A stretch of DNA of 63,984 nt, the filler included, from Asterionella formosa (lineage: Eukaryota): NCBI GenBank assembly GCA_002256025.1. It is 5 parts of 5 records of this genome, joined end to end, with 100 filler letters (N's around TTAATTAATTAA, not from the genome) between each part and the next. Parts side by side here need not be neighbours in the genome. Positions count along the whole stretch, not along the records: positions 54,081 to 63,984 come from NKIB01006994.1; 4 more parts are not named here. One strand, 5' to 3'. Made by a program: the position numbers and the translations under genes. The stretch's first letter is position 1. Every line of letters starts with the position of its first letter. Of this stretch, positions 3,600 to 63,984 are shown piece after piece. A model generated the notes under the pieces. That model was not told the DNA's origin and searched no databases. It was given only the letters and a program-made list of their open reading frames with translations.

Positions 3600-4525
3600 A
3601 TGGACGCAGGAATTGAACACGGAGTCCTTGCATTCGAATTTGACAATATTCGATCTGACAACAACTACGACGAACAAACTGCCATGGTGCAATTTCGACG
3701 ATCCCACGTGAACCGTGGACGAATTGTCAAGATCGTGATGTTTTCCATGACGTTTGTACTCCTCATGGTTGGATTCCTTGCCATCAAGTCTGATCACTCT
3801 CAGGTCAAGGAGCAAGCCGTGCAAGCCCCAGCCATTTCGGATGAACCCCCACTCGAGGGGAATGGAGAACGTATTGTTGACCCTCCTGACGAGGGGAGCA
3901 GGACCTTTGAATTGGAGCTTGCCACGTTGGAAGGATTGGATGAATCGAAAGGGTCTGTCATCATTAAGACTATGCCAGCATGGGCGCCTCTTGGGGTGAA
4001 GCAGTTCCATGTACGTTGAAGCAAAGGGATAGGGGGTTCATTGTTCATTGTCCTTGTCGCTACACTAACACACAACGTGTTCCTCCATCCGTGAAAAAGG
4101 AACTGGTCGACAGCGGCTTTTACCAAAACTGTCGCTTCTTTCGGGTTGTTCCTAATTTTATGGTACAATTCGGTATTAGCGGAGACCCCTCGGTTCAAGC
4201 CAAATTCACGGGCAAGCCTATTTTGGACGACAAGGTGCTTACCACCAATGCGCGTGGGACTGTCACGTTTGCCACCTCGGGACCAAACACAAGAACGACG
4301 CAATTGTTTATTAATACGGCGACAAAGGGAAATGCCTTTTTAGATAAACAAGGATTTTCACCCTTTGCTCAAGTATTGGTGGGGATGGACATTGTGGACA
4401 AGATTTTTGATGGTTATCGAGAAAAACCAAATCAAGGAAAAATTGTCAATCAAGGGAATGAATATTTGGAAAAAGAATTTCCAAAGTTGAGTTGGATAAG
4501 CTCTGTTACGGAGATTATGCATTGA
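3600..4525 (+). CDS. Cyclophilin-type peptidyl-prolyl cis-trans isomerase with N-terminal TM anchor; exons 3600-4010 and 4100-4525
   Basis: Motifs WAPLGV..F.ELVDSGFY, FFRVVPNFMVQFG, NARGTVTFATSGPNTRTTQLFIN, FLDKQGFSPF. Phase-0 intron 4011-4099 (GTACGT, branch CACTAAC, AG) joins the two ORFs. Hydrophobic segment IVKIVMFSMTFVLLMVGFLAI. Confidence 0.92.
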
Positions 4526-8171: not shown

Positions 8172-9689
8172 GGAAGAGGACAACCGGTATTACTATACCA
8201 GGTACCTCGTACCATCGGTAAATGTATTTTATAATGCATCGTGTCTTGAAATCTTTGTCTTGTTCAAAGTCTAATAGGCTGTGATTCCATTCTTGAAAAG
8301 GATTCCTAATTCGAAAAATTCAGATTCCATTCCCCTTTCTTACAGACTGCTACATATGTAATCATGATGCTGACGAGCTAATCAAATGATACCTAACAAC
8401 TGATCAAAGTCACTTTTGAACAATCATGATTCACTGCATATCAAAGAACTTAGCAAAGGAGGTGACTGGAAAGGCTTTCAGAATGCAACAGAAAGGGGAA
8501 CCAAAATTTTGGCACCATTGTGACAAAGCAAGCACAATGCAACAGTATAGATCCCATAAGAAGTCGAATAATCCAACAACCACTCACATCCATTTGATGA
8601 AGAATTGGTACTTTAGTCATCAATGAGCAGGGTTTGTATACACCAGCCAGAGCAAGCTGGAAGATAGCAGGGATGTAAATAGTGGAATTACCATCGACGC
8701 TTTACAGAAAACCATCATTTTGTGCTTTCATGTAGCTCATCCTTGGCAGTCCATAGGGGACAATAGATATCAGTAATCCATTTCCCTTAAATAAACAGCA
8801 GTCCATTTTGGCAATTGATGCTATTGAAATTATTGAAGGTAGTTTGGCAGTCCGAAAACGGAGCATATGAAGTATGCAAAATATGTTCTATATGAAGGGT
8901 AATTGCAGGATTGAGTAATCCAAAAACTGTACATGTGAAATATACACTATATGTTTTATATGAGGGCAATTGGCTAGTTATCATCCAGCATACAAGGTAT
9001 CTAAAATGGTTTTTCAATGTTAATTGAAAGGGCAATGTAGTGGTGGTGCCAATAGCTAAGCTGTGAATTGCCTAGTTAAGACCCTACTTGGGAAGAGTCT
9101 GTCTCTACCCTCGGTAGTGTCTTACCTTCAGTGTGCTCTTGAGAATCACTCTGCTTATACCAGGTAGTATGTATGACTGTACAGTTATTGGAGATGCAGA
9201 CCGAGTTATTTTTATTGTTGTGAGGGAGAGGGATGTATCTAATCACATCACAGTCATTTGTATAATGCAGCTAATGGTTCGAGCCAACCTAGCTATACAG
9301 ATACTTTTACTACCTATCATCCACAGGACAATGACTCCTGGTTAATCAATCCAATAAGAAGTGGTTGCAACAAAGTCTGATACATGCTCTTGCTCGAAAG
9401 TCTATGTACATAATAGTGAATGGACATGTAATGGACTTGCATGATTGTGATGATCAATGTAACATATAGCATTCCTGCCTTTTTTGATTTTATTGTACAT
9501 CTTCTAATAAATATGTTGTATTGCCAGGAAGTTCTGCATCCCATCAATAATGAGCTACATTAAAACTTTTATGAAATGGTCTTGGTATATAATAGAGCAT
9601 CATGGAGTAGCCACCAAGGAGCATACACATGCAACGAGCCCTGCAGACCCAATTAGAAAAGTCTTTTTAAGTTTTTCTAATCACCTCTT

Positions 9690-28910: not shown

Positions 28911-28916
28911 GTTAAC

Positions 28917-29205
28917 TCCTGACGTTGTAGGGTACACGGCTATCTATTTTAATCGTCATGAAACCCCATAGATGCTGAGCAATCCTCTTCCAAAAAGTCG
29001 ACCCGATCGGTTTTTCAACAGTCATCAAAATATTGGAATCGGAATTAGTATGTGCAAAAAATCCTGACGTTGTAGGGTACACAGCTATCTATTTTAATCG
29101 TCATGAAACCCCGTAGATGCTGAGCAATCCTCTTCCAAAAAGTCGACCCGATCGGTTTTTCAACAGTCACCAAAATATTGAAATCGGAATTAGTATGTGC
29201 AAAAA
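28917..29205. repeat. Near-perfect tandem duplication, 2 x ~145 bp
   Basis: TCCTGACGTTGTAGGGTACAC...GGAATTAGTATGTGCAAAAA starts at 28917 and again at 29062, with few substitutions. Confidence 0.95.
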
Positions 29206-29732: not shown

Positions 29733-31829
29733 TTAGACACGTAGTTGTGGATGCCCACCATTGCGGCGATCTTTCAACATTTGGTTGAGAATTTGAGTAA
29801 CAGTCTTCTCTGGACCATATGCCTCATAGATTCGGTCGATTACAGCATGTGCAGTGTACCCAGCTTGAACAAGACCTGCCACTCTATCCCAGAAAACCTT
29901 GCGTCGATAATAGATAAATTTTGTCCTCCCCCTCTCTGCCCGGCCCCCTTGTAAATATCCTTGCTGGTTTTCGTCCTGTGATTCCAACTTCCCATTCTTG
30001 CCAAAGAACAAATAGTGTTTTTGGTGTCTTGGAAAGGCTCCTATTGTAAACAGGATCCAAAGCCATATTCGTTTGTTCATCGTCATTGCCTGCTTGGCTG
30101 TTGTTGTCGGTTCCTATGACAGGAAAATTTTCGACATTTGAATTTGGGCTGTTGTTGGCATTTGTTATGCCGAAAGCAAAATTAGAAACACTGCCCCTGA
30201 GCATTTGTGCCGGCATCCGGGAAAGTCGATTCAAGCTTGTCTGCATCTTGCCCATCCCTTTGGTCACATTGGTTGTAAGGATGGAAATCTGGCTTTGAAT
30301 CTCCTTCACCTCTCGTTGTATCTCCCTTTGCTGTGAACACAGCCCAAGAAATTCGTTCTTGTTCCGGTTCCTCTGAATAAATGCATTGACGGCTTGTTGT
30401 TGGTGGTACTGCTGTATGCCTCCTCCGCCATTATTTACTGTTGAAACTGCAGCTACTCCTGTTGACACTTCAGCGACTTCTTCACCCACATTGCTCGAAA
30501 ACTCATCTGGATCCCAGATCTCGTCAATGTACAGTTCCGCCCCTGCACCATTCACAACAATTAGCCGTTTCCCCACAGGATTTGTACCTGGTGTTAGATT
30601 ACTACGTACAAGTGCGTATGCCATCTGGATCCGTTGTGTCAGCTTGCCTGGTAAGAAACCCAGTAGACTTGGCTCAAAACCGCCCAAACAACAAGGAGTG
30701 GACGTGCCAGCGTTAGTGCCATTACATATTGCAGAAGCCAATCATCAGACACACCGCTTTCTTCATTCAGAACATACTTGCATGGGCCGCCAATACCAAG
30801 GGCTGCCGCAACCTTGGCGTCTGGATAAGGTAGCTCAACATCAATGTAAGTGTCAACTTGTTCTGTGCGCCGTTTCCAGCATCCACGGAAGGCAACATCA
30901 TCCCGGGAGCAGCCATTTCGACGTGCATGTGTTGATGGGTACTTCCGAAGGCTGTGTGTGCCAATCAAACTATTGTTCATTCGTTTGAACTCACTACTTT
31001 CCCATACATCATCACGCAGAATTGTATAGGCCTTTCTTTTAGCATTTGATGGATTGTTGGCTGGTTTGTAGCGAAAACACCCATGGATTTTCGGGTGATG
31101 CGCCTTGTTCCATACATTCTGTCTGAAGATGAATGGCCAAGGCAAGGAGAACGCAATAGTATTGCGACATGGATGCAATGAGTACCTGGTTTGGTGCCTC
31201 CCTCTCTTCTTTAACGTTTTTTGTCCAACACAGCTTGGCCATCAGAGTGAAAGGAAATCGAAGATTTGCAGTTAGGTTTATCTTTGTTAATTGCACACAA
31301 TCGTCAATTCGGCCAACCATGTGGAATTGAAAGGCACACAGTGCAGGCAACTGATACCGATGGATACTGTCCTTGAATGAATGAAGGATATGCATTGTAT
31401 TGGAGAACTCTTGGGATTCTAGGGGTCGCGATGGTTTCCCTTTTCTGCGCACTTCCTTCTTTTTTTCTGCCTTGATGAGGTTATTGACACCAGGCATAGA
31501 CCTTGTTGGATTGCCACTGTGCATAATAGCATTCCAAGTGGAGAGTCGATTGGGCATAAAATACGACAATGCCTTTTTTTAGTATTGCAGGGAAGAAGAC
31601 TGGCCATGTGTTGGATTTTCATCATTGTTTGGATCAGGACGGCCATAGACTTTCATAGCCATCCATTTGTAGACATCCTCAGGTGTAACTTCCCCAAGTT
31701 CCTCTGGACTAAACTTGTAGCTTTTAGAATATTCTATGCCATCTCTGTATGACATCATAGCAATTAGGACACCTTGTAAAAAGGGGATTGTGTAGGTTCA
31801 TTTCCTCTTCTTGTTGGCATTGTCCCCAT
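29733..31829 (-). mobile_element. Crypton-type (stramenopile) tyrosine-recombinase transposon ORF with C-terminal GCR1_C-like domain; frameshifted
   Basis: FQFHMVGRIDD (catalytic R), WTKNVKEEREAP, GTHSLRK (HxxR), RGCWK, VDTYID (Tyr), then LSKTPKTLFVLWQEWEVGITGRKPARIFT...YYRRKVFWD. Several stops and frameshifts. Confidence 0.88.
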
Positions 31830-40799: not shown

Positions 40800-41552
40800 C
40801 ACTTATTATTCATTTGTTTCTCCAGATCACTGACTTGAATGTCTGGCAAAAGAGATACCAATTGCCATCCATCAACTTTTTACATTCCTTCCTTCTAACG
40901 TTAAGTTTAACATTGTCAACAAAAACGGATGCTCTCGGAATGGTGTTTCATTTGTTTATCAATAGCTAGGTGAACCAGCATCACTGAAAACTGCTAGGGC
41001 AACAAATAAACACCCTATGAGTTCTAATTCGATTGGATGCATGTTTAGGGAATTTTTACTCGGAAGTTGAAATTGAGGAGGAAGGGGCATTTCCATTGCA
41101 TTTTCAGGGAGAAAGCCAGCGTAATATTGGAAATCTGAATATTGCATGGTTTCTGCATTCAATCCTTGGAGATTTTTTGGTCTCAATTATTTGTCTTGTT
41201 GTGACTGATTATTGTCATAAACTGAATCATTGCTGTCGTCATGAAATGGATGATTGTGGCCACTTGATTCAAGGATAGGACAAATAATCTCTTCTTGCTG
41301 TCTACTCTCCCTAAATACTGCAGCAGTTACACTGACATTAACTTCTTTCCTTGAATGATTCGATGCACTACCGCAATACACAGTTTCATTATGTATTCCA
41401 GGAACTGGATGTTCTTGCATGCAATGTCGACATTGACCATATGCGTAAAAAACACGGTTGCTACAATTTCGATTGTTAGATTCAGATGGGGATTTGTTCT
41501 TCCGAAATTTGTAGTTACACAGATAACACCATTGCAATGTCCGCAAAGACAT
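40800..41552 (-). pseudogene. Internally deleted paralog of the Plavaka/CMC-like transposase N-terminus
   Basis: LQWCYLCNYKFRKNKSPS...CRHC, QFQLP..LNMHPIELEL and LFVALAVFSD match the copy at 49700-50821; the segment between HPIELEL and LFVAL is missing. Confidence 0.75.
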
Positions 41553-41649
41553 TGCAAATTTCAAATGATGACAAAGTAAGGATACAAACAGGATAGAATG
41601 AAAATGAATAAATAATTATAAATTTGCAATCATTTATTATGTAACTACT

Positions 41650-43000
41650 AAGTATGCATTGGATTCTATTAGATCCATTCAAAATCAATGTTGTCATCAA
41701 TGTCCCGTTGATTAATGCTGTCATTGTAATCAGAATTCTTCTCAGGAACATTTGGTTCAAGTGGTTCATCATATTAACATTTGGTTCAAGTATTTCAACA
41801 TATTGATGTATATCCTCTTCACTTACGTTGGGAAATGAGAAGTATAAATGTTGGTAGATAATATTTGTGGTGGAAGTAGCAATTCCATTCGTATTACTTT
41901 CATATTCAGATCGATTCTTTTGTGAAAGTCCAGTGTAGATTTCCTCATAGTAATCGAGTAAATCATCAGTCCATTGATCAGTGAGACCATTTGAAACTGA
42001 CTTTCTTCCCTCACACTTTTTTGATAAGTGGTTTCCCACCAATGTCGACAAAATCATTAGAATGACGAATATCGTTCTCTGAAATTTCATGCGTATCTGG
42101 ATTGAAACCTAAATATTTTGGTTTCAATTGGAATTTTCCTTTCAGCACCAAGAAGCAAAATACTTCTGTACTGGCATTGATCAGCGAACCAATAAAACAT
42201 GATTGCAATTCACACTGCGCCTGAAGACTTAGTTAGAATTTGGTCACACCAGATTTGTCTCCTGTTAAAAATGGTTCTCCATGGGTTGTCCTGCCTATAA
42301 AATACACTGGAGCAAGAACATCACGCCAGAATTGGTATCCTTAGCTTCCCCTCCTGTCAATGTCCTTTGACGGCGCAAAACGATAAAGAGTGAACGTCCA
42401 CCTAATAAGTCAATATCCATAGTCTGGAAGTTATTTTCTTTTAGACCAGCTGGGCGGTGTGTCATGAATAATGTTAGCATTTTAAAATTCAAACATATTT
42501 GATAAGAATATCATTATCAAATCAAAACATCATGCTTTCGGAGCATCTCCCTGCAAGAACTTACCCAAGATTCCTTTAAATTGATTATTCAATACATTCT
42601 GACATTCTCTTGCTCAACTTTTTAATGCACATGCCACCAAATGTTGATTTAACGTAATCAAAAACGTGCCTTGCTGGTACGTTCAATGGTCTGATTCATC
42701 GGAAGTAGTGCATCAGAACCATTCCATATGAAATCGGCAAGCTCTGGGTCACTCTCCAATTCTTTGCCTAACTCCGGTTTCACTGTGTATAGCCGAGTTA
42801 GGCAGGTCAACATTGGGCAAACCGATCCTGCTTGTGATTGGAAATGCCTTTCATACTGCTTGGACTAGATAGGGCGGGATGTTTGATTCTCTTTTGAGAC
42901 CAGGAAAAATCACATTAGATTGATATTCTGTTTTACAATACCTGCAATTCATGAACTATAACATCAAACTTACATGTTCACAGCAAAACTTCTTGGTCTT
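41650..43000 (-). pseudogene. Decayed accessory 'ORF-X', paralog of 45408-47302
   Basis: LQSCFIGSLINASTEVFCFLVLKGKF, DFVDIGGKPLIKK and GLTDQWTD match the copy at 46600-47040. Confidence 0.7.
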
Positions 43001-45407
43001 GAAAATAAAGCTCACAACCTTTGTGACAATTGATGGATTGGTTCAATTTTTGCTGAGCGGGAATTACGTTCTGATAAGGCTGCTGAAATAGAAGTTTCTT
43101 GATAGACTCGTATGGACAAGCAAGTTTTCAACCGAATTACGACACACCTTTGTAGTGATTGAGTTGATTGACCAATTGATAATATCCTTTGGCAAGTGCA
43201 AAATGTTTTTCCCTCAGTTTTTCATGTACTTGTTGGTACATGCGATTAGAAAATTTATGATATTGTACCAGTCGTCGTCTGCAAATAAAAAGTATTGTAC
43301 ATATAAGATCAGGGGTACTGTACGATAACTGGCACAGAATTTTTCTGTGCATGATAGGTATTTTGTTATTTGTGTTACAGGTACATACTTTATATATGAA
43401 TATTTGATAAGCATGTTTAAACTTATAATACTTGATCAGTTTGTTCTAATATTGATCCATATTGACTCTTAACGGTAACCCTTAAGTAATCATACAAATA
43501 CAGTAAATGAGTAACAACAACTCAAGTCGAAATCACTACTTCTCTTTGAATTTCAATTGCTCTTCTCATGACCATGAATTACTAATTGTATTTACAAGAC
43601 CATCATCGATTTACCTTAGCTACATCCTATATTGTGTATTTGTTCATCTTATAGCCATATTCGTATCTCTATGAAGTATTTATCCAAAATATGTGGAAAC
43701 GGATTGTAATTTAACTACTTAATTTAGAATTGTTTCAATCTACTATCTATATAAACAGTTATCTCACACCATCTCAATCCTGTTCATTCTCTTGTCTGCT
43801 GCTTCCCTGCTACCCCGTTTCTGACATATCTGTAACTGCCCACTTCTTCCTTTCCCTTGTACTTGTCTGATTCCGAAGGATAAACTGATGTCGCTGATAG
43901 AGGCGGGTTGCCTCTCCTCATTCCCTTCTTCTCCATATCAGAGCTTTCCTTCATTATTAGTATTCATGTTAATGTTGTAACAACTGCGAAGCCAATACAT
44001 GTTAGTCATATTATTTTTATGCAACAACATGCAGTTCCATTCTATTTTCACTTACCATGAATAGATGTATTCCGTCACACAGGTTTTTCCATCACAATGT
44101 GTCCAACGATCCATTTCGATTGTTCACTGTACTAACTAATGGGAAGGAATTGTGTGTTAGGCTTGTCTTGTCTAGCTTTTAATACAACAGCCAGGTCCAA
44201 TCATGACGGTATGGTCAGCATTTACCGCATCAATGATACAAATCCATGTTCAGTTTCCATATTCCTCAATAAATCGTGAAGACATTGATGTTCAGAACTT
44301 CCATATACTCTTTGTATACAATTTACCCTGATAGATATAAAAGGATGTATTACTTATGTTCTAACGGGTGATACTTGTGAGCATTGATCCAACGACAGCA
44401 GCACTTACCGCGACCATCATTTCTTCACATTGAATTTGTCCCCGAAAGTATGCATATACAGGTAAGCAAATAAACACTGGAAGAGAATTTACGCATTGAG
44501 TTACTGTCAACCCAACAATTGAATATTCTGACATATTCATGCACACACGAGTCCCAATATATTTGAGCCAACCATATATGTTTTATTTAAATCTATGTTT
44601 GAATATTTCAAACACCCATGTACCGGTACTGTCGTACACATAGATCTGAATATCATCAATATTACCGATACTTAATTTGATTTTATGAAATGTTGTTTCA
44701 TTTGTTTTGAATTTAGTCTGTAAAAATTTCAGTAAGTGATATTAGAATACATACAATGCTGTATGAGTTCATTATTTACCATGACCTAATATAGAATATA
44801 AATATAGGCTGTACGACAATCCGGTATGGAGTAATAGTTAATGATATAATTAAGCCCCATCATGGATGTGACATAGTATACGTAAAAAAGGGTTAGGGTT
44901 AGAATGCGACGTATGAATACGTTGTACAAAATTTGGCGTAAAATGATCTTACGATTAGTTGTTTATGATCTTAATTTTAGTGTTTGTGTTATCGTGGTGT
45001 ACAGTAATACATTTTAAAACATGCATTGTTGTAAATAGGGGCCCTATTTCATCTACATCTATCATGTTCACATGTAAGGACTGCTAGGAGTACGTAGTAA
45101 CAAGGTCCGGTACGGTAGTTATGAACAACTGTTCACATCTTGTTGAAGGACATGATATAATGATGTACGTATCTGGAGTTATGATATCTTTCCAGTTGTG
45201 TACATATATATATATATATAATTATATATATTAATATAGGCACACCTTCTTTATATCCATAAGTGTGTAAGTAGCCACCGGTATGTTATTTGTTCATCCC
45301 AACAGTACTTGTAAGAGCATTTATATTCGATCTCCTATTTCCCTTAATTTTTAGCGACACTTCATCATGTGCTTCTTGTCAATCCTCACCACTCCTGTTA
45401 AGCAATC

Positions 45408-47302
45408 ATGCCTCCAAAACCAGTGACTACAAAACCAGTGCGAGATGCGGCAGTTGCAAGGAGAGTGCCGGATTTGGCTCCAAAGCGAGTGATTGCTGAT
45501 TTTGGAACCTTTCCTACCAGTTATTTTAATAAAAGGAAAAAGCAGTATACTGTTCATGACGCCTTTGGTGGTGCCACACCTTCCACTCCGTACATTCCAA
45601 CAAATGTAAATCCTTGGGATACTACAAAAACTCGTTTCAATCGTTCTATTCCTGTAGATTCTGTCTTGAATTCTGCCAGTGAGAATGAAGATGATGATTC
45701 ACTCAATTCCGGTTCAAGAAATGTTGCTGCTATTGAGACTACCCATAATATTTTACCCTACATTTGTTTTTGAAAAGCTTTGCAATCGAAGTGATCAGGT
45801 GAAGTATGACAAACTCAAAGATGAGCACATCAGTCTTCAAGAAATCCACAACAACCTCAAAGATGAGCACACCAGTCTTCAAGAAATCCACAATGACCTT
45901 GTTCATTCTAACTATTAAATCTCATCTGACCTGAATCACTAAAAAAGGCAACATTCAGTTCAAGTTTCATCCTTACGTGGTTATGAAGATTCATCCGCTT
46001 TTGCAGCAAATTCAGCACGACGTTTGTTTTTAGCGAAAATGGATCCCTCTGTTATCGCAAAAGTTGTTTGTTATATTTTCAAAACCAAGAAATTTTGCTG
46101 TGAACAGGTATTAAGTGATGAATTGCTATACATCAGACTTACTATGGATGTTTTTTACTAAAAGGATGTCACTTAAACCTATTTTTGCATTGCCCAAAAA
46201 GGCTATAAAGCACCCAGCCATATCTGTAAGTTGCAACTCCATAGGCATATCGAATGTGAATGCAGATTGGTGAGAGTGATCCTGAACTTTCGAACTATAT
46301 GTGGAATGGAAGTGATGCACAACTTCCAGATAAGTATAGAATGTAACGTACAAACAAAGCACATTTATAATATATCAACTCTACATTTGTAGGTATGTGC
46401 ATTAATAAAATGCGAGAACGACAAAATAAATTCAACAATCATTTTAAATCGATTTTAAGTAAGTCAATCGTGATGTTTTGTTCTACTGTTAAAACATTTT
46501 AATTTTTCTACTTCTATGTTCTAAACATTTTCGTGTCTTAGTTGGTGTTACAGAAGATTACTTCAACAAGCTTGGTCCATCGGAGTTTATTGGTTGGGCA
46601 TGCAAGTTGTATGCATTTGCTCAAGCAAGTTTCATTGATAGAGCAAGCAATTCCTATCACCCATGGATTGATGTTCTTGCTCGAGTTCATTTTATAGGTA
46701 GGGTCAGCCGTGGCGATCCCTATCTTATAGGAGAGAAAATTGGGGAAATTAAATTCCTTCTGAGTGATCGAGCTAAATGTGAATTACAATCAAGGTTTGT
46801 TGGTTCGGTTATTAATGCTTCGACAGAAGCATTTTGTTCCCTTGTATTAAAAGGGAAATTCCGATTACAACCTGGATGGATTAATTTTAATCCTTCCTCT
46901 TATTAAACTCAAGACCAATTACCTCGTTTCTGGCAGGATGTTGTTGATATCGGTGGAAAACGACTTTTAAAGAAAAGTACGACAGAGCAAAGTTCAGTGT
47001 CAGGAGGTCTCACTGATCAATGGACTGATGTCTTATTGGAATAATTTCAATAATTGTGTGGTGATCTTGAACAGGATAATCGATCTGTACAAGCAATGAA
47101 CCGTAATGGATTGGTCAGTAAAGCACCTCCAAGTCACTTTCTAAACAGATGTTTTTCTTTCCCTAAAATCCCAGAAGAGCAAATGAAGAAATATGGTGGA
47201 GATGAACTTCGACAAGATGATGTTGCTGGTAGTAGCATCAATTTACGACATGGTGAAAATCGTCAGATCATGACTGACGATGAAGATATTGAATGGGAGT
47301 AA
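45408..47302 (+). pseudogene. Decayed accessory 'ORF-X' of the large transposon, with coiled-coil repeat; function unknown
   Basis: MPPKPVTT start; 42-bp repeat; HPWIDVLARVHFIGR...CELQSRFVGSVINASTEAFCSLVLKGKF; DIGGKRLLKK; GGLTDQWTD; stops and frameshifts. Confidence 0.65.
45814..45897 (+). repeat. 2 x 42 bp coding tandem repeat (LKDEH(I/T)SLQEIHN(N/D))
   Basis: CTCAAAGATGAGCACA.CAGTCTTCAAGAAATCCACAA at 45814 and 45856. Confidence 0.95.
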
Positions 47303-47377
47303 TAACTGTTAGTGTAAATATTAATCATTGATCTAATTTATATTTACAGCTAGCTAATTTATATTTACATCTAGCTA

Positions 47378-50300
47378 TCATCGTTCACTAGACATTTTTT
47401 GTTCCCACCCAATTGATTTCCATAAATGCCGTGCAGGTAGGGAAACATAGTAATTATCTTTTTCTAATTGCTCCAATACCTCCTTGGGCTTCACTGGTTT
47501 CCTGGATTGCATACAACCTTCTTGAGGTTTTAAGGCAAGCACAACAAATGCAGCGGACAGAATGTTGTTAAACTCAAGCACACTCAGTTCAGTTGTATCG
47601 TTGCATATAGTGTCGCCTTTTGCAAAAAAAATACGTTTATGAGCTTCCATTTCGGATGAACTTTTCAAGGAACGTATAAAGGCTAAAAGAATGGTGGTAT
47701 CATTCGAGAAAATTACATTTCCCCAAAGAAATAATTTTCCAGGAACAGTATAAGACTTTGACCCATCCCACTTCTCCCAGTTCACTTCAATACAATCAAA
47801 CCATTCCCGACCAGAGATCCCAGCTTTTGAATCATTATTCCATTTCGGATGTCATCCCTGCTTTGTTCAGGAGCATTGACGTGAATTTTGACATAGAAGT
47901 GAAAATCAATCCTAATTACAGTCACAGATTTCCCTTCATTTTCAATTACACTTTTCGCTCTTTCCACCGCTGAATCGGTTATGTTTTTAACATGGATAGC
48001 ACCGTGTCGTAAATCTGGATGAAATAACTGAGAGAATGGTGTTCTCAACATTCCACGTGACGACAAAGGTTGTTGTAAATTTGTTAAAGAAACACCAGAA
48101 ATATTCCATTGACCATTTATGGCTAGTGCAAAAAAGTGATGTTTAAATCTTGGTATTTCTTGCTTCCTTGTTGGAAGGGGAAGAAAATACTTTCATTTTT
48201 GCATCCAAAGAGATAGTAATTTCTAAGCCATCATTCAATACATCCTGTTCGGAATAGTTATCAAATACAATTTTGCATGCCAGGGAAAATTGTCTTGTTT
48301 CATAGTATTGTATCAAAAGATCATGCTTCAGACGATGAACTTGTCCGTTTACGCGTTTACTGAAACGTTTCAATTTATTTTTCAGAAAAGATTCCAAATG
48401 GCCACCGAAAAATTAAGAGGTGAACCAAATTTTTGAATCAAATGAGGATAATGTTTCATGCCATGGAACTTTGTCATTCTTAATCCAATTTGAGATACCA
48501 TCTCCCTCTGAGGACCAACCAGTGTCTTTGTGACAGACATGAACCTATTTATTCTTTCTTTCAAAGTTATCACACAAGTTTCAGTAAATTGCGGAAGGAA
48601 TAAACTGTCATTTTTTGGAAATACCCAACCATAATAGCAATGTGAAGTCTTTTTCAAGGTCGGTATTCTCAGGACCTAACATTCCTCCCCTTTAGAAATT
48701 GTTAGCAAACATAGACCAGGGATTTCTTGGCCAGACATCTTGGATAATAAGGTCAATCCTGATCGATACAATAGTCTTGGTATATTACGATCACTTTGTC
48801 TCTCCAGGTGGCTATTAATGTATCTAGCATTTTTTTCAAATTGAAGTTTTGCAGACACATTTCTTGTACTAGAACATGTAGGTGGTCGTAACTTTTGCCA
48901 GTGAAGGAACTTTTAAAAATTGGTTCTTATCTCAATTCTTGTTATGGTTGGTCAAGATCAGTCAGGTCTACTGGAGGTAAACCCGTCTCGTTCGCCTCAG
49001 AGTACCTGTTTGGTACTTCTGAACAACTCCTTTTCTTAAAAAAGGATTCCCAATCTTTAGGAATAGTTCGATAATTATATAATAATGACTCCAAAATGTA
49101 CTTCAATAGGCCAAGTAACCGTTGATGGAGCACCTCGAACGGTGTTGCACCAAATACTCCTTCTGGATCACCGCCAAGGTAATGCGTCATCAATGCCGGG
49201 ATGATTGGATTATGGGAAATGACGCGGTACCACTCATTTCGTGTTGCGAACTGACTATTATTCTGAGTCATACCAAAACATGTTGGTATAGGTGGTAATT
49301 TTCCATCTGGATAAGTTTCTTTATCCAAATATTGCTTCAGAAATTTAAATGCATCGCCAACTTCTCGCAGTTCACATTCTATATCCGGATTATCAGTGTC
49401 TTCTTTACGTACAGTGCAATCTCAGCAAACATGTTGTCGATATAATCCATTGCCTCCACGGAAACCGCAAATTTTATTATGTTCCTCTGTATCTCCAACT
49501 ACCATTCCAATTTGGAAATAAACTTTTGTATACCCCAGACCATGCACCCAAATATCATAGAATTTGTTTGGATCTTGAAAAGGTTCTAATAAAAATCCAG
49601 TAACACCATGATATGACTTCAGTTGAGAAAGAGAGATGTCATTACCTGACTTCTTAGTGTCCATTTTTTCTCCAAGTCACTAGCTTCGATATCTAGTAAT
49701 AATGACACGAGTTGCCACGCACGCATCAACTTTCTTCCTTCCTTCCAACGTTAAGTTTAAGATTGTTAGTAAGAATGGATGTTCTGAGTGCTTCATTTGT
49801 TTATCAACAGGTGAACCATCACTTAAGACAGTCAATGCCACAAACAAATGCCCAGGCTTTAAAACTCTGTTTTCCGTAGCTTTTGAATTGTTGAATGCAT
49901 TTTCAAACCAAGTAGCAGAGGTAACTTCGTCATATATTCGTTTTCCGCAGTTTTTAAGCTTCCTTTATGTATGACATACAAAATGTTCCATGATGTCAGG
50001 ATCACGTAACAACGATGACATGAGTTGTACTGGTTCAAAGTAATGTAATGTCCGTGGAATTATAGAGAGTATTCCATTATTCTCAAGAAGAATTTCTTTT
50101 TTCAACAGTTCACCACCTGTTAACCTTGGCGGAAATGAATCATCCATTTTTTTCAAAGTTTGATAGGAAGGAGCTTGATTCTTTCCATGACAATATTTCA
50201 TTCTCTGTGATTTGAATAACCATTTCATAAGATGATCGAAGTACATTGGTGGTAGATAGTTCTTGTTCAGGAATAACATGAGTTCTAATTCGATTGGATG

Positions 50301-50821
50301 CATGTTTAGTAAATTTTTTTGGGAAGTTGAAATTGAACAGGTCGAGGAATTTTCATAGATTCTTTGGAAATGAACCCACTTCGATCTTGGTACTCAGGAT
50401 AATGCATAGTATCATTATCCAACCCAATAATTTCTGATAATTCTGTTTCCTCTCTACCTTGCCTTGATGTATTTGCAGTCAATGAGATACTTTCGTCATA
50501 GAATGGAAATAACAAATTCTGATCATCTAATTGTGAAAGAGATTCTTCCGTATGCAAACTATCAAAAATAAGAACGTTAGGAAATGAGGAAGAGACACCT
50601 GACTTTCCTGTTTCATTTAAATCACTTGATAGTTTACCACCACAATACATAGTTTGATTGCAAATTCCAGAAATGCGGTGTTCTTCCAAGCAGAGATTGC
50701 ACAAACCAAAATCATAAAATTGTCGATTGTTGCAGTTTCGATTGTGAAAGTCAGAGGGAGATTTCTTCTTCCGAAATTTATAGTTGCATACCAAGCACCA
50801 GTTTAAGGTTTGTAATGCCAT
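47378..50821 (-). mobile_element. Large Plavaka/CMC(EnSpm)-like DDE transposase pseudogene with N-terminal Cys-rich domain
   Basis: Collinear motifs SSLLRDP, YDEVTSATWF, VLSDGS, HPFLLTILN, VVGDTEEHNKICG, TPFEVLH...LGLLKY, RQSDRNIPR, TKFH...IQKFGSPLNF, HLESFLK; many frameshifts. Confidence 0.72.
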
Positions 50822-55120: not shown

Positions 55121-55678
55121 TCACTCATCCTCCGAATCGCTCTCACTATCTTGACCGTTCATTCTAGCCACTGATCGATTTGTGTTGATGAACAAGTCAC
55201 AGTCATCTTCCACAAAATCATAGGAAATCCCATCACAAGCAATCGCCTCTTCATGGAAATGACCTTCTTCCAAGTTCTTATTAAATGTTTCTAAGAATTG
55301 TTCGTCAGCGTTGTCCTCAGAAAATTCAACAGGCCACAATCCATTACCCCGTAAGTGCTTGATCTGCTCTTTATATAAAATGTGAGCAATCATGAATCGG
55401 ATGCCTCTTGCATTTTCTACTCCTTCCAGTTCACTCGAAGGCTCGTCCCCCTTCTCCACAATCACATAATCTCCCCGCTTGACCCAAACAAGTTTGTGAA
55501 ACTTTGCGGGGAGGAGCGCCAGATGTTCCTGGCCTTCGACTTGGATTTCGAACTGATTGCCTCCTCTGGTTGCTTGTACTTGGGCAATTCGTTGACTTTT
55601 AGTTGGAATGGGAAGGTCGTTCAAGACATGGTCCGTGAGGTGCTTACGATAATTGGAACGGCGGCCTGCTCCTGCCAT
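55121..55678 (-). CDS. EIF1AD: eIF1A-domain RNA-binding protein (EIF1AD-like)
   Basis: OB-fold motifs RIAQVQATRGGNQFEI, LALLPAKFHKLVWVKRGDYVIV, ILYKEQIKHL...LWP.EF, DLFINTNR and an acidic tail; ATG at 55678. Confidence 0.9.
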   Translation of the reverse strand: MAGAGRRSNYRKHLTDHVLNDLPIPTKSQRIAQVQATRGGNQFEIQVEGQEHLALLPAKFHKLVWVKRGDYVIVEKGDEPSSELEGVENARGIRFMIAHILYKEQIKHLRGNGLWPVEFSEDNADEQFLETFNKNLEEGHFHEEAIACDGISYDFVEDDCDLFINTNRSVARMNGQDSESDSEDE

Positions 55679-57231
55679 GGTGAAAGCTTTTTTAGTGGCT
55701 GTGATCACCAACAGGTCAGTTCTACCGGATAAAGTACCCGTACCACGATTCTATGTAGCTCCACCGCGGACAATCGACCGGTGGGGAATATTTGAGAAAA
55801 TGCTCCCGGACGAGCGATTGTCCGGTGGATATCGTAAATGCCTGGGACTAGTATAGTTAGTAACATTCTACTAAAGGCTAAATAAATTTATGGAATCCTT
55901 TGTTGTGTACACGGATAAATTTTCGTGAGTTTCAAGTGTGTAAAAGAATTTTGAAACATGCATCACGATCAACACACTTACGCATCATGGTGTCATGTTC
56001 CATCATTTCATTGCTGCACGACTTGATGGCTGCTCACATATATCATCCTCTTGGCGAATGCTTGATGCGCTTGGTAGGTAGGTCTTACATAAAGGCATAT
56101 AGTAGTTGATGTAGGTCCAAATGCATAATTTAAACAAGTTATATAGAACAGCAAGTTTTCAAAGATTTGCTATTCATGTATCATTTCCTGGTTTCACAAA
56201 TATTTACCTCCATCATGCCAACATAACTTGGCTATACTCAACAGAACCTCTTTTAATGATTGACGGCAAATTATTTCAATCTTCTGTTCTGCGAGCAAAA
56301 CTCGTCAAACTCAACTCGATTTGAATTTGAATTTTAATAATCTGTAGTACTAGTAGCTCAGCAAACCCAAGTATAATTTTCGCTTTCCATTGAGTTACTT
56401 TTCTTTGTTATGATTGTTATGATTACAGATTCATTCAAACAATCAATGATATGTTAGTCTTCGTTTTAACAAGTTGATGCAAATCAAATCATGTTCCATT
56501 TTTCGAGTTGAACTGGCTGTCAGTGGACCCCAACCGAATTTCTTATTCAATGAATTAATAGCCTTCGTCGTGAAAGTTGATACACAGAAGAATTCTTGAT
56601 TCCTGATTCCCAGTTAGGTCTCCACTTTTGTGTGAAGAAAAAATTTCCCTTCTTGTCGTTGTGTTTAATACAACAATGCACAATTAGGTACCACCAAGGT
56701 TGATAACCTTCAGACATTTGATAAAGAACAATGTTGAAGGGCAAATTCTATCAAGTTTCCCCTACTATGTTTATCAAACAAGCTTGGTAAACCCTAAACT
56801 ACGAATGATTGGAGATACAAATCATTTCTGTCCAAATGACTGAAGAACAATCGAATCATCCTATTAAAGGATTGAGGAAGAATCCAATCATCATAGCGGA
56901 GATACCTGAAAGAAGTATCTCAGTAAAGGAACATCTATATCCTAGAATCTATCTAGGCTAGATAAATTTATATGTTACAAGGAATAGGATGTAATGTACT
57001 TCACAACAGCTGAAGGAACTATGAAGAATCTCGCCTCCAAGAAACAAAGAACAATTCATTTCAGAAACATGTAGGAGTTGCCATGTTTTAATCGAAACTT
57101 CATTTCAAAATTACATTTAGTTTAAGCTCACTCTTTCAGAAAACACACAAGTGGAACTACCGGTACTACGATTGTTGACAGAATTTTATATCGTAAATTG
57201 TACTCCGTACTCATACTACTCACCGAATGCT

Positions 57232-59164
57232 AACTGCCCACAAATAAAGCATAAATATCAATTTTAGCTTACATTGCCCATCATATAAAATATATTTCGA
57301 ATATTTCCTATCTTCACCTCGAAAATTGCCAAAGGTCCGATATTGCCCATCATTAAAATATTTTTTGTATATTTCATATGTTCGCATTTTGGCAAGACAA
57401 CAGACGCCAATTGCCCCTCGGTTTTCCAGCCCTGGGATTGCCGAAATCGGCAAGGGGTCTACTTAAGGAAACCATTTTATATACTCTACAGATGTTAATA
57501 ATTTATATCTAGAATTCACCTCGTTTTTGTTCGTCTCCGCCTGAGAAGTGGACTCCGGCAATTCACCTTTCACCATGCCAATCGTCGTCCATCATGACCG
57601 GTTTGAAGCGAAATCAGTTCCGTGATGACACCAGTGGCGATTCGTTGTCTAACGGATGCGGTTGGTTGTTGGGTAGCTTGTCTTTTCGAGGGATTCATGT
57701 AGTTGCATCGTCCATAATTTTGTCGGACGAACGATCATATCGATACATCTGATGTTGGTGGCAAGCTTTTGCTCCGGTCATGCATGTAATGATGCTTAAC
57801 GGATATTCTACCGGTAATGGCAGCAGTCATCTAGTCTACATACGTACGTGGTACTAAAAACAACCCCATGCATGGTTTAAGCTATACTTTAATGCTTACT
57901 TTGAACACGTTATAATATTATCTCTGTAGACTCGGTATTATGTAGACTTGGTATTATTTTTACGAGACCTGAATGTTAAATTATATCGTTCACATACTCA
58001 TTGATTTTATGTACCGTATGCCTGATTTCGTCCTTTCAATTTTAGTTCTCACTCTATCTTGCTTGCCTGCCTTTGCTCTATTCGGGCTTGCAATAGGCAA
58101 CATTCGTCTTTCTTTGATCCCGTCGTCTGCTGCTTGTTATGATATTTGAAGCGGATCGGTGAGTACAACAGTGTGTGAAACACTGAATGTGGATTGTAGA
58201 TTTTATTTATCGACTTTTCGATTTGATTGCTTCCGTGGTTTGTTTTGATCGCTTCCATTGTTGTTTGTCGTTCTGCACTGTCGTTTTGTTTCGACTGTAT
58301 ATATCTATATAAGAACCGATGCATTTTATCAATGACTACTCATTTAAGATTTGGTATTGTGCCATTGTTGATCGTATTTGTTGATTTGTATAGTCGTTGA
58401 CAATGATGTCAATATTGCTGCCAAGCAATGCTTTTCTTCTACTAACGCGCTTTGCTATATTTCTACTACGAGTTGTTTATATCAGAAGCTACATGAATAC
58501 TCAGCTAGAGAGAGTCAATAGTGCTGGAGCAGCGTGGCGATCACGCTTGCTCAGAATGGAATGATCAGGGTTGCTTGTTTGGTGGGCGGAGAGGAAGAAT
58601 GACTGTGGTGGAAATACTGCTACTGGTGTCAGGCTACTACAGCGATGCGCATGGTTGCAGCAACCAGACCATTTACGCTACATAACGATGCAGGTCTAGA
58701 TTGGGTTCAGCTTTTTTGCTTCTTCTTTTGGTCTGCGATTGTGTGGAGATGGAAAGTCAATGTTGCCTGTGTAAGTACTACTACAATGATTCACAATGCA
58801 TACGTCTCCATTGAAACTCTTTTTATTATTCACTTCATTTCTAACCCAAAACAATCTTTTCTATTTCTCATTTGATGCTACTTATTACATCGCATTTCAT
58901 ACTTTGGTTGCTCCAAACATCTTGTTCAATTTTCATTGATGTTGCATGTTACAGTCATTCTTGTGTGTTTTACGTTTGTTGTACCATCTCCATGCATATT
59001 ACCGTTATTTTGGTTGTCATGCTAAAATTGGCAATGTTATTGCCGAAAAATTCGATGTGCCCCATATTGCCCTTAAATAAAAATTACTTAAGAAATTACT
59101 TAGAGCCTAAAAATTACTTAGAACTACCTGAATGGCAAGATGATAGCTGAAGCGGTAATTGCTG
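57232..59164 (+). mobile_element. Non-coding unit 1 (A1...B1) sharing both ends with the adjacent recombinase-bearing unit
   Basis: A1 (~57232-57760) is similar to A2 (~59209-59780), e.g. CAATTGCCCCTCGGTTTTCCAGCCCTGGGATTGCCGAAAT. B1 (~58890-59164) is similar to B2 (~62750-63056). Confidence 0.75.
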
Positions 59165-62100
59165 AGGCAATTCACAAACTAGCTATCGTTGCGCCATTCG
59201 CTTACCTACTGCACACTCATTCAGTGTAAATGTCAATTTTAGCTCGCTATAGCCCATCATTTCGTATATTTCTTATCTTCACATCGAAATTTGCAATGGG
59301 TCCGATATTGCTCATCATTAATATATATTTTGTATATTTCCCATGTTCGCATATCGGCATTACAATTTGTATCAATTGCCCCTCGGTTTTCCAGCCCTGG
59401 GATTGCCGAAATTGGCAAGGGGTCTACTTAAGGAAACCTTTTCATATAATCTACAGGTTTCAGTAATTTATATCTAGAATTCACGAATCTGTTGTAATAT
59501 CCATCGATTCTGTTTGTTTCTTAAAATGTGAGGGCGGAAATACAGCTTTGACACAGTCAATCATCAACCATCATGCCCAATCTGAAGCAAAATGTGTTCA
59601 TTGATGACGAAAGTAGCGACTCGACGTCAAACGGATTGGTTGGTTGTTGGATTTCTCGTCTTCACGTGGGATTCATGTCGTGTCATCATACCTACTTCAT
59701 CGTGGTGGCGCCAAAATTGTAATTCCTATTTCAATCGAACTCCAAAAGTCTCATCATTCATCATCCGATCTGTTGGAAACTGATGATTCGCATGATTGCT
59801 CATCGATACCATCGTTGATTGGACTTTTGGGGACCAAGATTCATGGGTTGCGCCGGTAAGGAGGAGTCCATTTCGCGCCATCGTTGTCAGATTTTTGGTG
59901 CTATTTCCAGACGTCATGTTCAGTTACAATTCAAAAATGATTGTTTTAGTATGTATTCTACGTGAAGATCAGATATGATGGCTCGGAAGCAAGTTTGATA
60001 GTGCTTTTTGGGCGGCTCTAAAATATAGATTTGTTCTGTTTTCATTCAATGTTATTATAACTATAACATACTGATTATTCTACAATGATAACGGGAACTA
60101 GAAGCCGTCGTTTTTCTCAAAGAGCAGTGACAAAGACTGCTAAGCGCAAAGAGCAAGATGGTAACCGGCGTGCTGCATTGTCATTGTGTGCACTGGCAAG
60201 GAAAAAGAAGCTTGGGTATGTTGTTGATTGTTGTGTGCTTCCATGCTGCCCTTTTGGTCGATTTCATCCTAGCTAACATATTCAATCAGTTTATTGGAAC
60301 AGAATGAGGTTGCTGCAAATGCTGCAAGTATTCCCGATATAGCCATTGAAGAAAGCGACAAAGAAGTAGAATATAGGTGTGTTTGTTGTTGATTGTTGCA
60401 TCATTGGCTGTGCTTCCGTTCCTTGGTTTTGCAATCACTCACAGTTGCATTGTTTTTTCTTGTCATTGTCAGCTTTGTTAAGGAAACTTGTAAAAGCAAT
60501 GTATCCACTACAGCTGTAAAAGATTCCGATTTAGCAAAACACCATTCTGATTTTGAAAGCTCCAGCTCTGTTGATTGCAGCAACAGTAGCGCATGTGATT
60601 CTGACACGAAGTACTACCAAAGAACTTTTACTGTTGTTGATCCTACTAACGCTGGAGCTCATGATCGCCACCATGATTCCTGGAATCCAAAGTCGGTTGC
60701 AACTGCTGAAGACTATGCAAATGCCATTAGATCCAGCAACTGACGCACAACACGCCGAGCAGGTATACCAAGGCACTTACCATCATTGAAAGCAGATTCT
60801 TTGAAACTCTTGTCGGAAATCCAACCTTTGCCTCGCTTGCTTGTACGGATCAGGATCCCGACAACGGAAACCAGCCAATCCATCGATTCTATCTACTTTG
60901 TTGTGGCTTACAATGTAACGCTACCAAGGACATCATCAACACTGCTGTGCTTTGGTTCGCAACCAAAAATCACCCGTCATCCTTGAAAGTGCACCTGACA
61001 AACAAGCCATCGCATCAGCAATGTACCAACCGAACACTGCCCAAACCAAGCTGAAAGATCTCTTCCGATGCTTCTCCCGTCAAGGCATCCCGTACTCCGT
61101 GTCGAAGGATTTCAATGGCGAGGGTGAGATTCAAGCATTTAAAAAAATATATGGCAATTGCTGCCAAGCACTGTCCATTGGAATACGGTCACAAGCCTAT
61201 GGCGTCACAGTTCGTATGATGATTGCCTGAAGTCCATGGTAGCTATGGAAAATGGGCAAAGCGTTCGGTGTTAGAGGTTCAATTGAAATGTGCGATTTGA
61301 CTTTCAACAAGGTGACAGTCGGTTTCTTGGACGGACTACAAACTGTCATGCTACATCCAAGTGAAGTCGAAAAAAATAATGCCCTGACGTTGCAACATCC
61401 TGAGCGGAAGTACCTGGTACCAAAGTCTACAGGAACGTACCATGATCAAGGATGCATACTGGCAACCCTACATGCATAGTGAAGCTCATACATCAATACC
61501 GGGATAACCTCTGTTCGCCCAAGATGGTAACTAGCAACCAACCGTTCTTTCAGCGACGTGCTCCTGAGAAGGAGCTCAAGGTATGTATTTCTACAATACA
61601 TTTGTTCTGCTGATTCCAGGTACTGGTGATTTTTTATGCATACCGGTACATATATGCACATTATGCATACCTTCTATGTTCTAACTAAAGTGCGTCTTTG
61701 TCTACATTGCTTCTTGTATACTTGGAACTAAGAACCGACGCAAGCTAGGGCTAACATACAAGGCAGGACGCAAGAAGGAATACTACTTTGGTAAAGGCTA
61801 TGCTACTAGGCTTTGTGTTGACTTAGCTACAGCTTCAGGCATGGATAATGCTGCTCATTGCACTGCCCATGGTAGGAGGATTTCTTCACTTGTCAATTCT
61901 AGTGTTGCATTACTACCTATGAAGATTATTCTTGATAATCCAGGCATGGATCAGCGGAAATAAATGCCAGGTACCAGCTCCCATCTAAGGAAATGCAGCA
62001 TCAAGAAATGATTGCAGTTTTTGAGAAGTTTGAAGATGCCAAGAAGGACCAGCTTGAAACTCCAGAAATATATACTTCTGGCTTTGCATTTGTTCCTCCT

Positions 62101-63056
62101 GATGTGAACAAATCAGTTGAAATTTCAACTCCAATTGACAATCATCCTACTGTTGATTGTAAAGTTGTTTTGATGTCTGTTACTGTGGCACCTCCTGCTG
62201 TGGCTGCTCCAGCTCCAGTTCACTACTACTCCCATCTGCCTCAAACACCTCAACACATATACACCATTTCTGGTCCGCCCGCCGCCTCCACAGCAAGCAA
62301 TCTACCATTCCGGTCCCCCTCCCCCTCCCAAAAACATTGCATATTCCTATCAGCAGCCATATTTTCATTCAATGCCGGGGCCACCACAACAAATGTACTA
62401 CTCCTCCCATGCTCCTCCTCCTCAAGCATACTATCATCTGCCACCTCCGGCCAGCAGCAGGCAACCTCCACCACCAGCTGGCTTCAACTCCAGCACACAC
62501 CCATCCACCTCAACCTCACCAACATCAATATACTATTACCCCAGCTCCTCCTCCATTTTGAAAAATTCATTTCTGTGATGACGTGAACGAAAAACAGAAT
62601 TTAAGTTTTTTGTGACGTTGAAGTTGAAAATATTTTGTGTTGAGAGTTTTCTCACCCAATCTATATTCCTTTCCTTTTCTCTTCTTTTGCTCTCTCTCTA
62701 CTTGAATCATTTTCTTGTTGCTTACCTTTGTTGTTTATGATTCAATCATGAAATCATACTTTGATTTCAAAAAACATGATGATCAATTTTTTGACATCTA
62801 TATGTTACAATCATTTTTGTGTGAATTTTTCCATGGTCAAAAATTTTCTCTTCTCCATGGTGTTCTTTGACCAATTGAAAAAGCCAACATTTACCATTAT
62901 TCTGGCTGTCATGCTAAAATCGGCAATTTTAATGCCGAAAAATTCGATGTGCCCTATGATGCCCCTAAATGAAAATTACTTATGAAATTACTTAAAGCCT
63001 AAAAATTACTTAGAAGTGCCCGAATGGCAAGACAGTAGCTGGAGTGGGAATTGCTG
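59165..63056 (+). mobile_element. Unit 2 (A2...YR...B2): Crypton-like element with decayed tyrosine recombinase
   Basis: Ends shared with unit 1; internal recombinase remnants. Confidence 0.72.
60760..62586 (+). pseudogene. Tyrosine recombinase pseudogene (DUF3504/Crypton-like) with Pro-rich tail; probable intron ~61581-61731
   Basis: YQPNTAQTKLKDLF, AFGVRGSIEM (catalytic R), FFQRRAP, HCTAHGRR (HxxR), RHGSAEINARYQ (His...Tyr) across frameshifts. Confidence 0.7.
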
Positions 63057-63569
63057 CTTTAATCACCCTTGATCATGGTGCTTTCCACCCAAGCCACTCC
63101 TCCCATGCCCACTCCTCCTAATATTCCTGTGGCTGACACTATCTCCTTCACTTCTGATCATCCCCCATGTAGGGGGCAGGTAAATACCGGTAAATCCTCT
63201 CTCTAATCCTCCATGTCTACATTTGAAACTTCAGTCAAAACTGGAAAGCCTCACTTGGTATATTTATCTGTACCTTACAACATGGTGCACACGTGCACGC
63301 ACAGTAGGGCAATTGAAGCGGAGAAGGTCGTAGCTTTATGGCTGGGTGCATGATTGAAGAACATATAGTAGCTCTAGTAGGCCTGGTACAAACCATTATT
63401 TCTAAAAATATAGCTAAATATTTTGTGCGATGAATCTCTTGTTGTTACAACCATCATTATGTTGATTGCGCTCGGTTGGTTCCCTTTGCTTCCCTTCAGT
63501 GCCTTGTGTTTTGCGATATAGTATTAGAACCGTGATCATAGCGCTGATCGGAAACCAAACCGCAAAACA

Positions 63570-63969
63570 GATGACATCAAACTTTCAGTTGTTTGGACGA
63601 TATTTTTCTTTGGTGATGGCGGAGTCATCACTACGTGGGCGCTGGATTCCGGCCGACCTCCTCATTCACTACATGAACCAAAAATTCAACATTGGAAGCG
63701 ACATGCTTTTGACTACGCGAACATTGATGACATACATGAACAAGTGCTACCCTTCAATGTCCTATGATCCCAATAGAATCACCATTCCAAGTGGCACAGT
63801 GGTGGACTTCTATAGAGCCAATTGTCAAGTCAAGAGCGTCCGCTACAACCTATTCTTCTTTTCTGACCATGGTTCTCCTGCTCCTTTGTTTCCGAAGAAC
63901 AGTAATGTCGCTTCTTTTCTTAATAATAGCGTCACAAAGCGACTATTAGGGGGTTCAAGGCAAATTTGA
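63570..63969 (+). CDS. Uncharacterised ORF, possibly the first exon of another mobile-element gene
   Basis: Open frame of about 130 codons from an ATG, with protein-like composition; no recognisable motif. Confidence 0.3.
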
Positions 63970-63984
63970 ACTGCAGAGGTGATG

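Follow-up and report, generated by a model that had tools for sequence, protein, structure and literature searches.

A Crypton-like tyrosine recombinase family in Asterionella formosa with a terminal hairpin and an internal complementary site

A stretch of 63,984 nucleotides from the genome of Asterionella formosa (assembly GCA_002256025.1), hereafter the window, contains two related mobile elements lying side by side, units 1 and 2, the second of which carries a broken gene for a tyrosine recombinase (YR). Both belong to a dispersed family that is a Crypton in the broad sense, having a YR only and no reverse transcriptase (RT), and the head-to-tail pair is probably explained by nesting, in what is structurally a new form of Crypton. 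Taken as a whole, our results are best explained, with somewhat better than even confidence, by a Crypton-like YR family that nests at an internal site (L1) of its relatives and has folded-strand ends.

The window pair and its family

The left parts of the two units can be aligned over ~490 bp (57233-57709 with 59208-59687; 74%, E 4e-88) and the right parts in two pieces (58897-58967 with 62754-62823, 76%; 58999-59164 with 62891-63056, 87%). Their interiors gave no alignment, with a best local score of 30 against a maximum of 33 among 30 shuffles. The initial annotation had described two diverged units with shared ends and unrelated interiors, of which only unit 2 has YR motifs, and this description holds.

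Comparison with complete copies elsewhere in the genome defined what each unit lacks. Unit 1 matches positions 233-2098 of a complete 2,098-bp copy (L265) at 89% and is a 5'-truncated copy of a non-coding 2.1-kb family, its interior being a dispersed repeat with many copies across the genome. Unit 2 matches positions ~183-4256 of a 4,256-bp copy (L098) at 78-80%, which represents the full-length, YR-encoding copy type of 4.26 kb. The shared segment "A", initially taken for the left terminus, thus lies inside the element; judged by the flanks of other copies, intact copies start ~190-230 bp further left. Their order is host TGC, the spacer of a site L0, a hairpin H, L1, a body with ~35-bp imperfect terminal inverted repeats (TIRs), ATTGC, and host DNA. 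L1 is a second palindromic site (ATTGC-4 nt-GCAAT) between H and the body. There are at least three subfamilies, M1, M2 and C.

Set against L265 and L098, both window units lack H, and no remnant of it was found beside the pair in the window. The junction between the units, initially described as a head-to-tail join of ends, fuses the right end of unit 1 (59162) to the L1 spacer of unit 2 and is not terminus-to-terminus. Unit 1 probably came to be nested in L1 of unit 2: it would have integrated there, and both adjacent hairpins and the left TIR of unit 1 would then have been deleted (Table 1). The TGC/T motif at the truncation point of unit 1 fits nesting at L1 followed by hairpin loss. This motif, with a ~4% chance of occurrence for a 4-mer within 7 positions, is suggestive and possibly marks the original left junction of the compound element.

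First-look searches of the genome returned 514 and 695 candidates for the two ends, of which 40 were scored for each end, against 54 for the YR core; these numbers bear out the proposal of a YR DNA transposon with an abundant non-autonomous partner. Depth in four read runs was far higher for unit 1 than for the YR interior, although depth is not a copy number. Exact matches to a 17-mer from the right end number 309 (control, 0) in the genome, which is assembled in 15,436 contigs.

The first 60 of these 309 matches, in contig order, served as a sample of right-end junctions. We dropped one duplicate, one internal L1 site (L208) and one match without family sequence upstream (L199), leaving 57. 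Unrelated DNA follows the right end in 42 cases and 4 have family sequence nearby, so that 46 do not abut the family; 2 have short flanks. Eight are joined to the L1 of a relative (seven bottom strand, one top) and one to another internal box; none of the 57 is joined to a left terminus. Were every TGCY site equivalent, between 0.06 and 0.7 joins to L1 would be expected among 57 right ends for 600-2000 family copies. L1 is simply the best match to the target consensus described below. A preference for a site inside relatives, not for arrays, is supported by these counts.

The initial proposal of preferential integration at relatives therefore survives in part: the preference is supported, and its supposed direction toward the ends of relatives, with formation of arrays, is not. 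Exact end-to-end junction motifs occur 4 times, against 309 right-end motifs, and the right-end region lies upstream in just 2 of the 4. True tandems (L265, L115) are a minority, and none longer than two units was seen. In a biased sample of 30 subfamily C right ends, 3 were followed by an M left end. One locus, L259, is a complete top-strand nesting, consisting of the recipient H, the whole newcomer and the recipient body, and has the same junction type as the window. Two other internal boxes, near the right end of subfamily C and in the left body, are also hit repeatedly (L006, L007, L013, L085, L089, L091; L073, L172, L270).

The hairpin, the internal site and the junctions

It is the ends of the family that make the finding of interest. 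H is ~190 nt long and folds as single-stranded DNA more strongly on the top strand (z -7.8) than on the bottom (z -5.6); in subfamily C, z is -9.6. In 16 copies from three subfamilies, both partners differ at 9 of 67 pairs; cells with two-sided change number 40 compared with 13.9 in shuffled data (0 of 500 shuffles as high), and slid controls gave 2-7. The motif CGAG occurs 10 times in 192 nt (0.28 expected), always paired, and forms five C-G/GA-AG/G-C blocks, 15-19 nt apart, that are kept in M and C while the stems between them change. G.A blocks with sheared pairs make stable DNA hairpins (PMC10085684), and the blocks of H cannot form on the complementary strand. H folds under RNA parameters as well, and a search of Rfam with H from three loci gave no match at E 0.1.

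When the 35 bp that follow L1 are set against the right end in reverse complement, 27-30 of 35 positions agree in three subfamilies (majority rows), and in subfamily C both TIR sides change together. Through H the L1 region pairs with the left start, and through the TIR it pairs with the right end; L1 is therefore complementary to both termini. In a natural join of a right end to a left end (L265), the top strand folds into a TIR stem, a small bubble and the H stem (z -6.6).

Two further ideas about H were rejected. Solo hairpins are not a separate element, as in a set of 30 H loci every contig that ran on past H led into L1 and the body, 4 of them stopping at L1. Copies with short hairpins are not a mobile subfamily, the 4 found among 19 being unclustered (4 changes against a shuffled mean of 3.8, on a weakly resolved tree). 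H is prone to deletion. At four places (the left end of L100, site L1 of L018, L005 and L014) the spacer or the inner part of H lies in reverse orientation, as though sites or hairpin arms had flipped.

Targets follow the consensus (a)(t)TG^CYnnwrcAat, which is weakly palindromic on either side of 6 bp and has one fixed crossover point. The joined-end spacer of the element is fixed at 7 nt, compared with 6 in targets and in L1. Of 21 left ends collected without regard to this spacer, 19 retain it, against 0 of 57 right ends. The two ends also differ in base composition. After the conserved C, the left end has T in 55 and C in 4 copies and the right end T in 33 and C in 15 (P 0.002); before it, subfamily C has A in 16 and G in 14 copies at the left and G in 30 of 30 at the right (P 2e-5). 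Both ends have the sequence (A)(T)TGCY, in which TGC alone is nearly fixed; its G varies in subfamily C, at the left only. No target duplication is apparent, and ~1-3 bp are shared at the crossover.

From this asymmetry it follows that homology at the crossover amounts to ~1-2 bp and that everything beyond is inherited from the top strand. Judged from genomic junctions, the product of one strand alone is inherited. Two-strand exchange over unlike spacers gives heteroduplexes, as with the coupling sequences of Tn916 (PMC5812530), and should leave both products; a single exchange followed by replication would match the asymmetry observed.

The recombinase and known systems

In the window the YR frame is disrupted by several frameshifts and stops, with motifs spread over several frames, yet the catalytic codons are kept: R at ~61273 (FGVRG), K at ~61372, HxxR at ~61868-61879, H, and Y at ~61972. 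A homologue search returned 282 relatives at E 0.001, and RG..E, K, HxxR, RH and Y are conserved across their alignment. When the family profile was compared with the PDB, 10 sequences matched at E 1 or better, of which 9 are tyrosine recombinases, led by XerA at E 2e-4. On these profiles the family enzyme is most readily assigned to the tyrosine recombinases. Three relatives carry Psemu1 names, the neighbour cluster in the Atlas is mostly Bacillariophyta, and a protein search found no relatives in viral contigs. Among the joints listed for the read runs, no RNA joint corresponds to the predicted introns of the gene; cover in RNA libraries is not to be read as transcription.

The enzyme had initially been likened to the DUF3504 type rather than the GCR1_C type. 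The first part gains some support: the family YR matches Pfam DUF3504 at E 0.0015 (19 bits, below the cut-off of 29.7), 5 of 55 relatives give weak DUF3504 matches, and the Atlas neighbours agree, while phage-integrase Pfam matches of the family are weak too. GCR1_C is absent from the Pfam matches of the family frames and the 55 relatives. No Pfam YR match was obtained for 9 frames of the window's own fragments. As initially noted, RT is lacking: none of seven elements examined has an RT-sized antisense frame (longest, 82-167 codons), and Pfam found no RT domain in the 55 relatives.

A second broken YR gene lies at 29733-31752 on the minus strand. Profile comparison of the family with its YR (30639-31238) gave no similarity (probability 0.1%). 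Its 3' part looks like GCR1_C by motif but gave no Pfam match to that domain. Just beyond this gene is a 147-bp tandem duplication (97%; 28914-29205). In a distant family with an intact, intronless YR, a palindromic motif, its 7-bp arms separated by a 6-bp spacer, is found repeatedly downstream of the gene (L111:3065-3090; L112:3220-3244 and 3576-3640).

According to Kojima and Jurka (2011, PMC3212892), TIRs and long repeats are both missing from Cryptons, a statement repeated in 2026 (PMC13465315). The family resembles Cryptons, including CryptonA/DUF3504 and the CryptonS of oomycetes and a diatom, in its YR as sole gene, its lack of RT, its abundant non-autonomous derivatives, its short shared end sequence, its RG..E motif and its stramenopile-type host (PMC3212892). 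It departs from them in its ~35-bp imperfect TIRs, 190-nt hairpin and internal site, in flanks that suggest one crossover point rather than a 4-6-bp duplication and, from CryptonS, in termini that are not TATGG (PMC3212892). CryptonF-1_cRei of Chlamydomonas reinhardtii likewise pairs a short terminal donor site with a near-identical target and rises in copy number, whereas no hairpin or TIR is described in the accessible text and clean excision was observed there (PMC9977147). Unlike CryptonF, the family YR has no GCR1_C match.

Outside the Cryptons, attP(+) of the phage CTXphi consists of two inverted sites with unequal spacers, ~90 bp apart, which are folded, undergo one exchange and are completed by replication (PMC4246890). 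Its integration by XerCD resembles what we propose for the family in the fold-back of two unequal-spacer inverted sites and in the need for homology beside one arm only (PMC4246890; PMC3442271). By analogy this points to a mechanistic likeness, not to membership: CTXphi is a bacterial phage relying on host recombinases and rolling-circle DNA, whereas the family has its own eukaryotic YR and a dispersed short target (PMC4246890). DIRS elements that have inverted terminal repeats (ITRs) together with an internal complementary region (ICR) share with the family an internal segment complementary to both termini and YR integration without target duplication (PMC6681497, PMC13465315). In contrast to them, the family lacks gag, RT/RNase H, a methyltransferase (MT) and long ITRs, and its internal site lies 5' relative to the YR gene (PMC6681497, PMC13465315). 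The split-repeat appearance initially noted for the pair recalls Ngaro/PAT-like elements; here, however, split direct repeats do not lie within one element, and the window repeats belong to two related ones. With two elements and no RT, split direct repeats of one retroelement are ruled out.

In the literature searched, we found no description of a Crypton with a hairpin or ICR (Repbase and subscription journals being outside its scope), nor of YR integration by a folded strand for eukaryotic transposons.

Table 1. Features of the nested pair in the window
Feature	Position	Strand	Basis
TGC/T left-junction motif at the unit 1 truncation point	57228..57231	+	Sequence and left-junction logo
Unit 1, non-autonomous, subfamily M1, without its first ~232 bp (H, L1, left TIR)	57232..59162	+	89% to L265
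Unit 1 right-terminal ~35 bp, imperfect inverted repeat of post-L1 sequence	59128..59162	+	Aligned right termini
Junction palindrome ATTGC-TGAG-GCAAT; left arm from unit 1 right end, spacer and right arm from unit 2 L1	59158..59171	+	Same junction type in L259
Unit 2, decayed, autonomous-type, subfamily M2, without H	59163..63054	+	78-80% to L098
Unit 2 left imperfect TIR, complementary to right terminus	59167..59201	+	M2: 27/35 matches
Unit 2 right terminus, ending ATTGC, then host T	63020..63054	+	Alignment of copies and sequence
Broken tyrosine recombinase gene with predicted introns	60085..62586 (limits approximate)	+	Motif codons, family alignment, YR profile matches including XerA
Predicted GT-AG intron within catalytic domain	61581..61732	+	Fits intronless relatives in alignment
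Two more predicted introns	near 60216-60289 and 60377-60472	+	Prediction

Elsewhere in the window, a subfamily C relic at 8387-9130 (minus strand) retains a shortened hairpin, L1 and ~780 bp of left body (76% to L174). To the right of unit 2 a further repeat, judged by summed contig depth, occupies 63200-63984 and contains a 167-codon frame without a Pfam match. Within 40802-50788, several long, diverged pairs occur in direct or inverted orientation (70-85%), among them 41951-42323 with 47043-46669. A host gene encoding an eIF-1A/IF-1 domain (Pfam E 1e-14) lies at 55121-55750 on the minus strand.

A model of integration and its alternatives

We speculate that the family integrates from a folded, single-stranded circular donor by one strand exchange followed by replication, a model to which we give a little less than an even chance. 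The mobile form would be a circle of the top strand. H and the TIR pair would fold this circle into one rod, rebuilding a double-stranded YR site with a small bubble that reflects the 7-nt versus 6-nt spacers. The YR would then exchange one strand pair with a TGCY target, and replication would resolve the junction. One exchange plus replication would account for an L0 that is split, an L1 that stays intact inside every copy and the inheritance of top-strand sequence alone. As a guess, the single strand might come from displacement at a replication fork.

Several points weigh against this picture. The covariation in H comes from three related subfamilies with about five clean independent events at the family level, relatedness can inflate the measure, and arm-to-arm gene conversion can mimic it. 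A second natural join (L115) folds less cleanly than L265, with a partly different central bubble. Two contigs of a distant YR relative show no comparable rod, their ends possibly missing. No match to the left-end motif was found in viral contigs, where a single-stranded or circular form was sought, and no empty-site or circle joint was among the joints listed (15 of 117) for the four read runs. No HUH, helicase or RT gene was seen that could make a single strand. Some bottom-strand joins to L1 (L258, L260 and L268) resemble replacement or inversion of the TIR region rather than nesting. Finally, VGJphi performs one-strand exchange on a double-stranded donor (PMC4246890), so asymmetry alone does not require folding.

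Two observations stand beside these points. In L258:3252-3662 and L268:542-1088, the region after L1 is swapped for 100-215 bp of right-end reverse complement, as expected of panhandle template switching. For the distant relative (P0129 clade), 449 candidates gave 2 loci with uncertain ends; one of the left ends forms a fold (z -5.2), but in the shape of many short hairpins.

The VGJphi precedent leads to the strongest alternative, in which the circle is double-stranded, as Goodwin's model for Cryptons has it. The asymmetry would then stem from VGJphi-like one-strand exchange or biased repair, and H would be an RNA structure or a replication or silencing signal. We consider this possible though rather unlikely. 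Exact joined-end sequences are present in the genome, H also folds when RNA parameters are used, CryptonF-1_cRei is consistent with a short donor site at one terminus and excises cleanly (PMC9977147), and the exchange itself has its precedent in phage (PMC4246890). A double-stranded circle nevertheless leaves unexplained the complementarity of L1 to both termini, the 7-nt spacer of the joined site where targets and L1 have 6, and the preference of the G.A blocks for one strand. In addition, by comparison with Tn916, a fixed spacer would be expected to drift if both heteroduplex strands were passed on (PMC5812530; the drift is our extrapolation).

The pair could also have arisen as a true tandem, unit 2 having inserted at the right end of unit 1 and H having been lost between the near-direct repeats L0 and L1. 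For the window locus alone, such a history is doubtful, at perhaps one chance in a handful or slightly better; as the rule of a family that builds arrays at ends, it is improbable. The deletion-prone H, the true tandems L265 and L115, the 3 of 30 subfamily C right ends in the biased sample, and L264, in which a right end is followed by a relative that has lost H, all speak for it. Opposed to these are the right ends sampled in contig order, 0 of 57 joining a left terminus and 8 joining L1, and the rarity of end-to-end motifs (2-4 of 309). Moreover, the spacer found in the window is the 4-nt one of L1, whereas that kept in L264 is the 5-nt one of L0.

A DIRS-type reading, with L1 as the ICR, is very unlikely. 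L1 is complementary to both termini, as the DIRS ICR is defined (PMC6681497), and target duplication is not apparent, with ~1-3 bp shared at the crossover. Against this, no RT frame was found in 7 elements and no RT Pfam domain in 55 relatives, the full-length copy measures 4.26 kb and has no long ITRs, and the YR gene retains its predicted introns, for which the RNA template would have to be antisense. Simple segmental duplication or an assembly artefact is scarcely credible: the assembly is fragmented and no read-run contig spans the whole stretch, but duplication is ruled out by the unrelated interiors, each unit belongs to a dispersed family, and the junction falls exactly on a conserved site and recurs in type in L259.

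If the folded-strand model is true, it would explain copy gain by a YR-only element. It would define a lineage of eukaryotic YR transposons that integrates a folded single-stranded circle in the style of CTXphi and integrons, with tandem G.A blocks letting one strand alone fold, a proposal we advance tentatively. An internal complementary site without RT would then also be a candidate link between Cryptons and DIRS retrotransposons. With hundreds of junctions, a defined crossover point, a donor structure and an enzyme, the family makes the question testable with oligonucleotide substrates. Should the folded-strand model fail, the analysis would still have correctly defined the boundaries and the target of an abundant Crypton family of diatom type.

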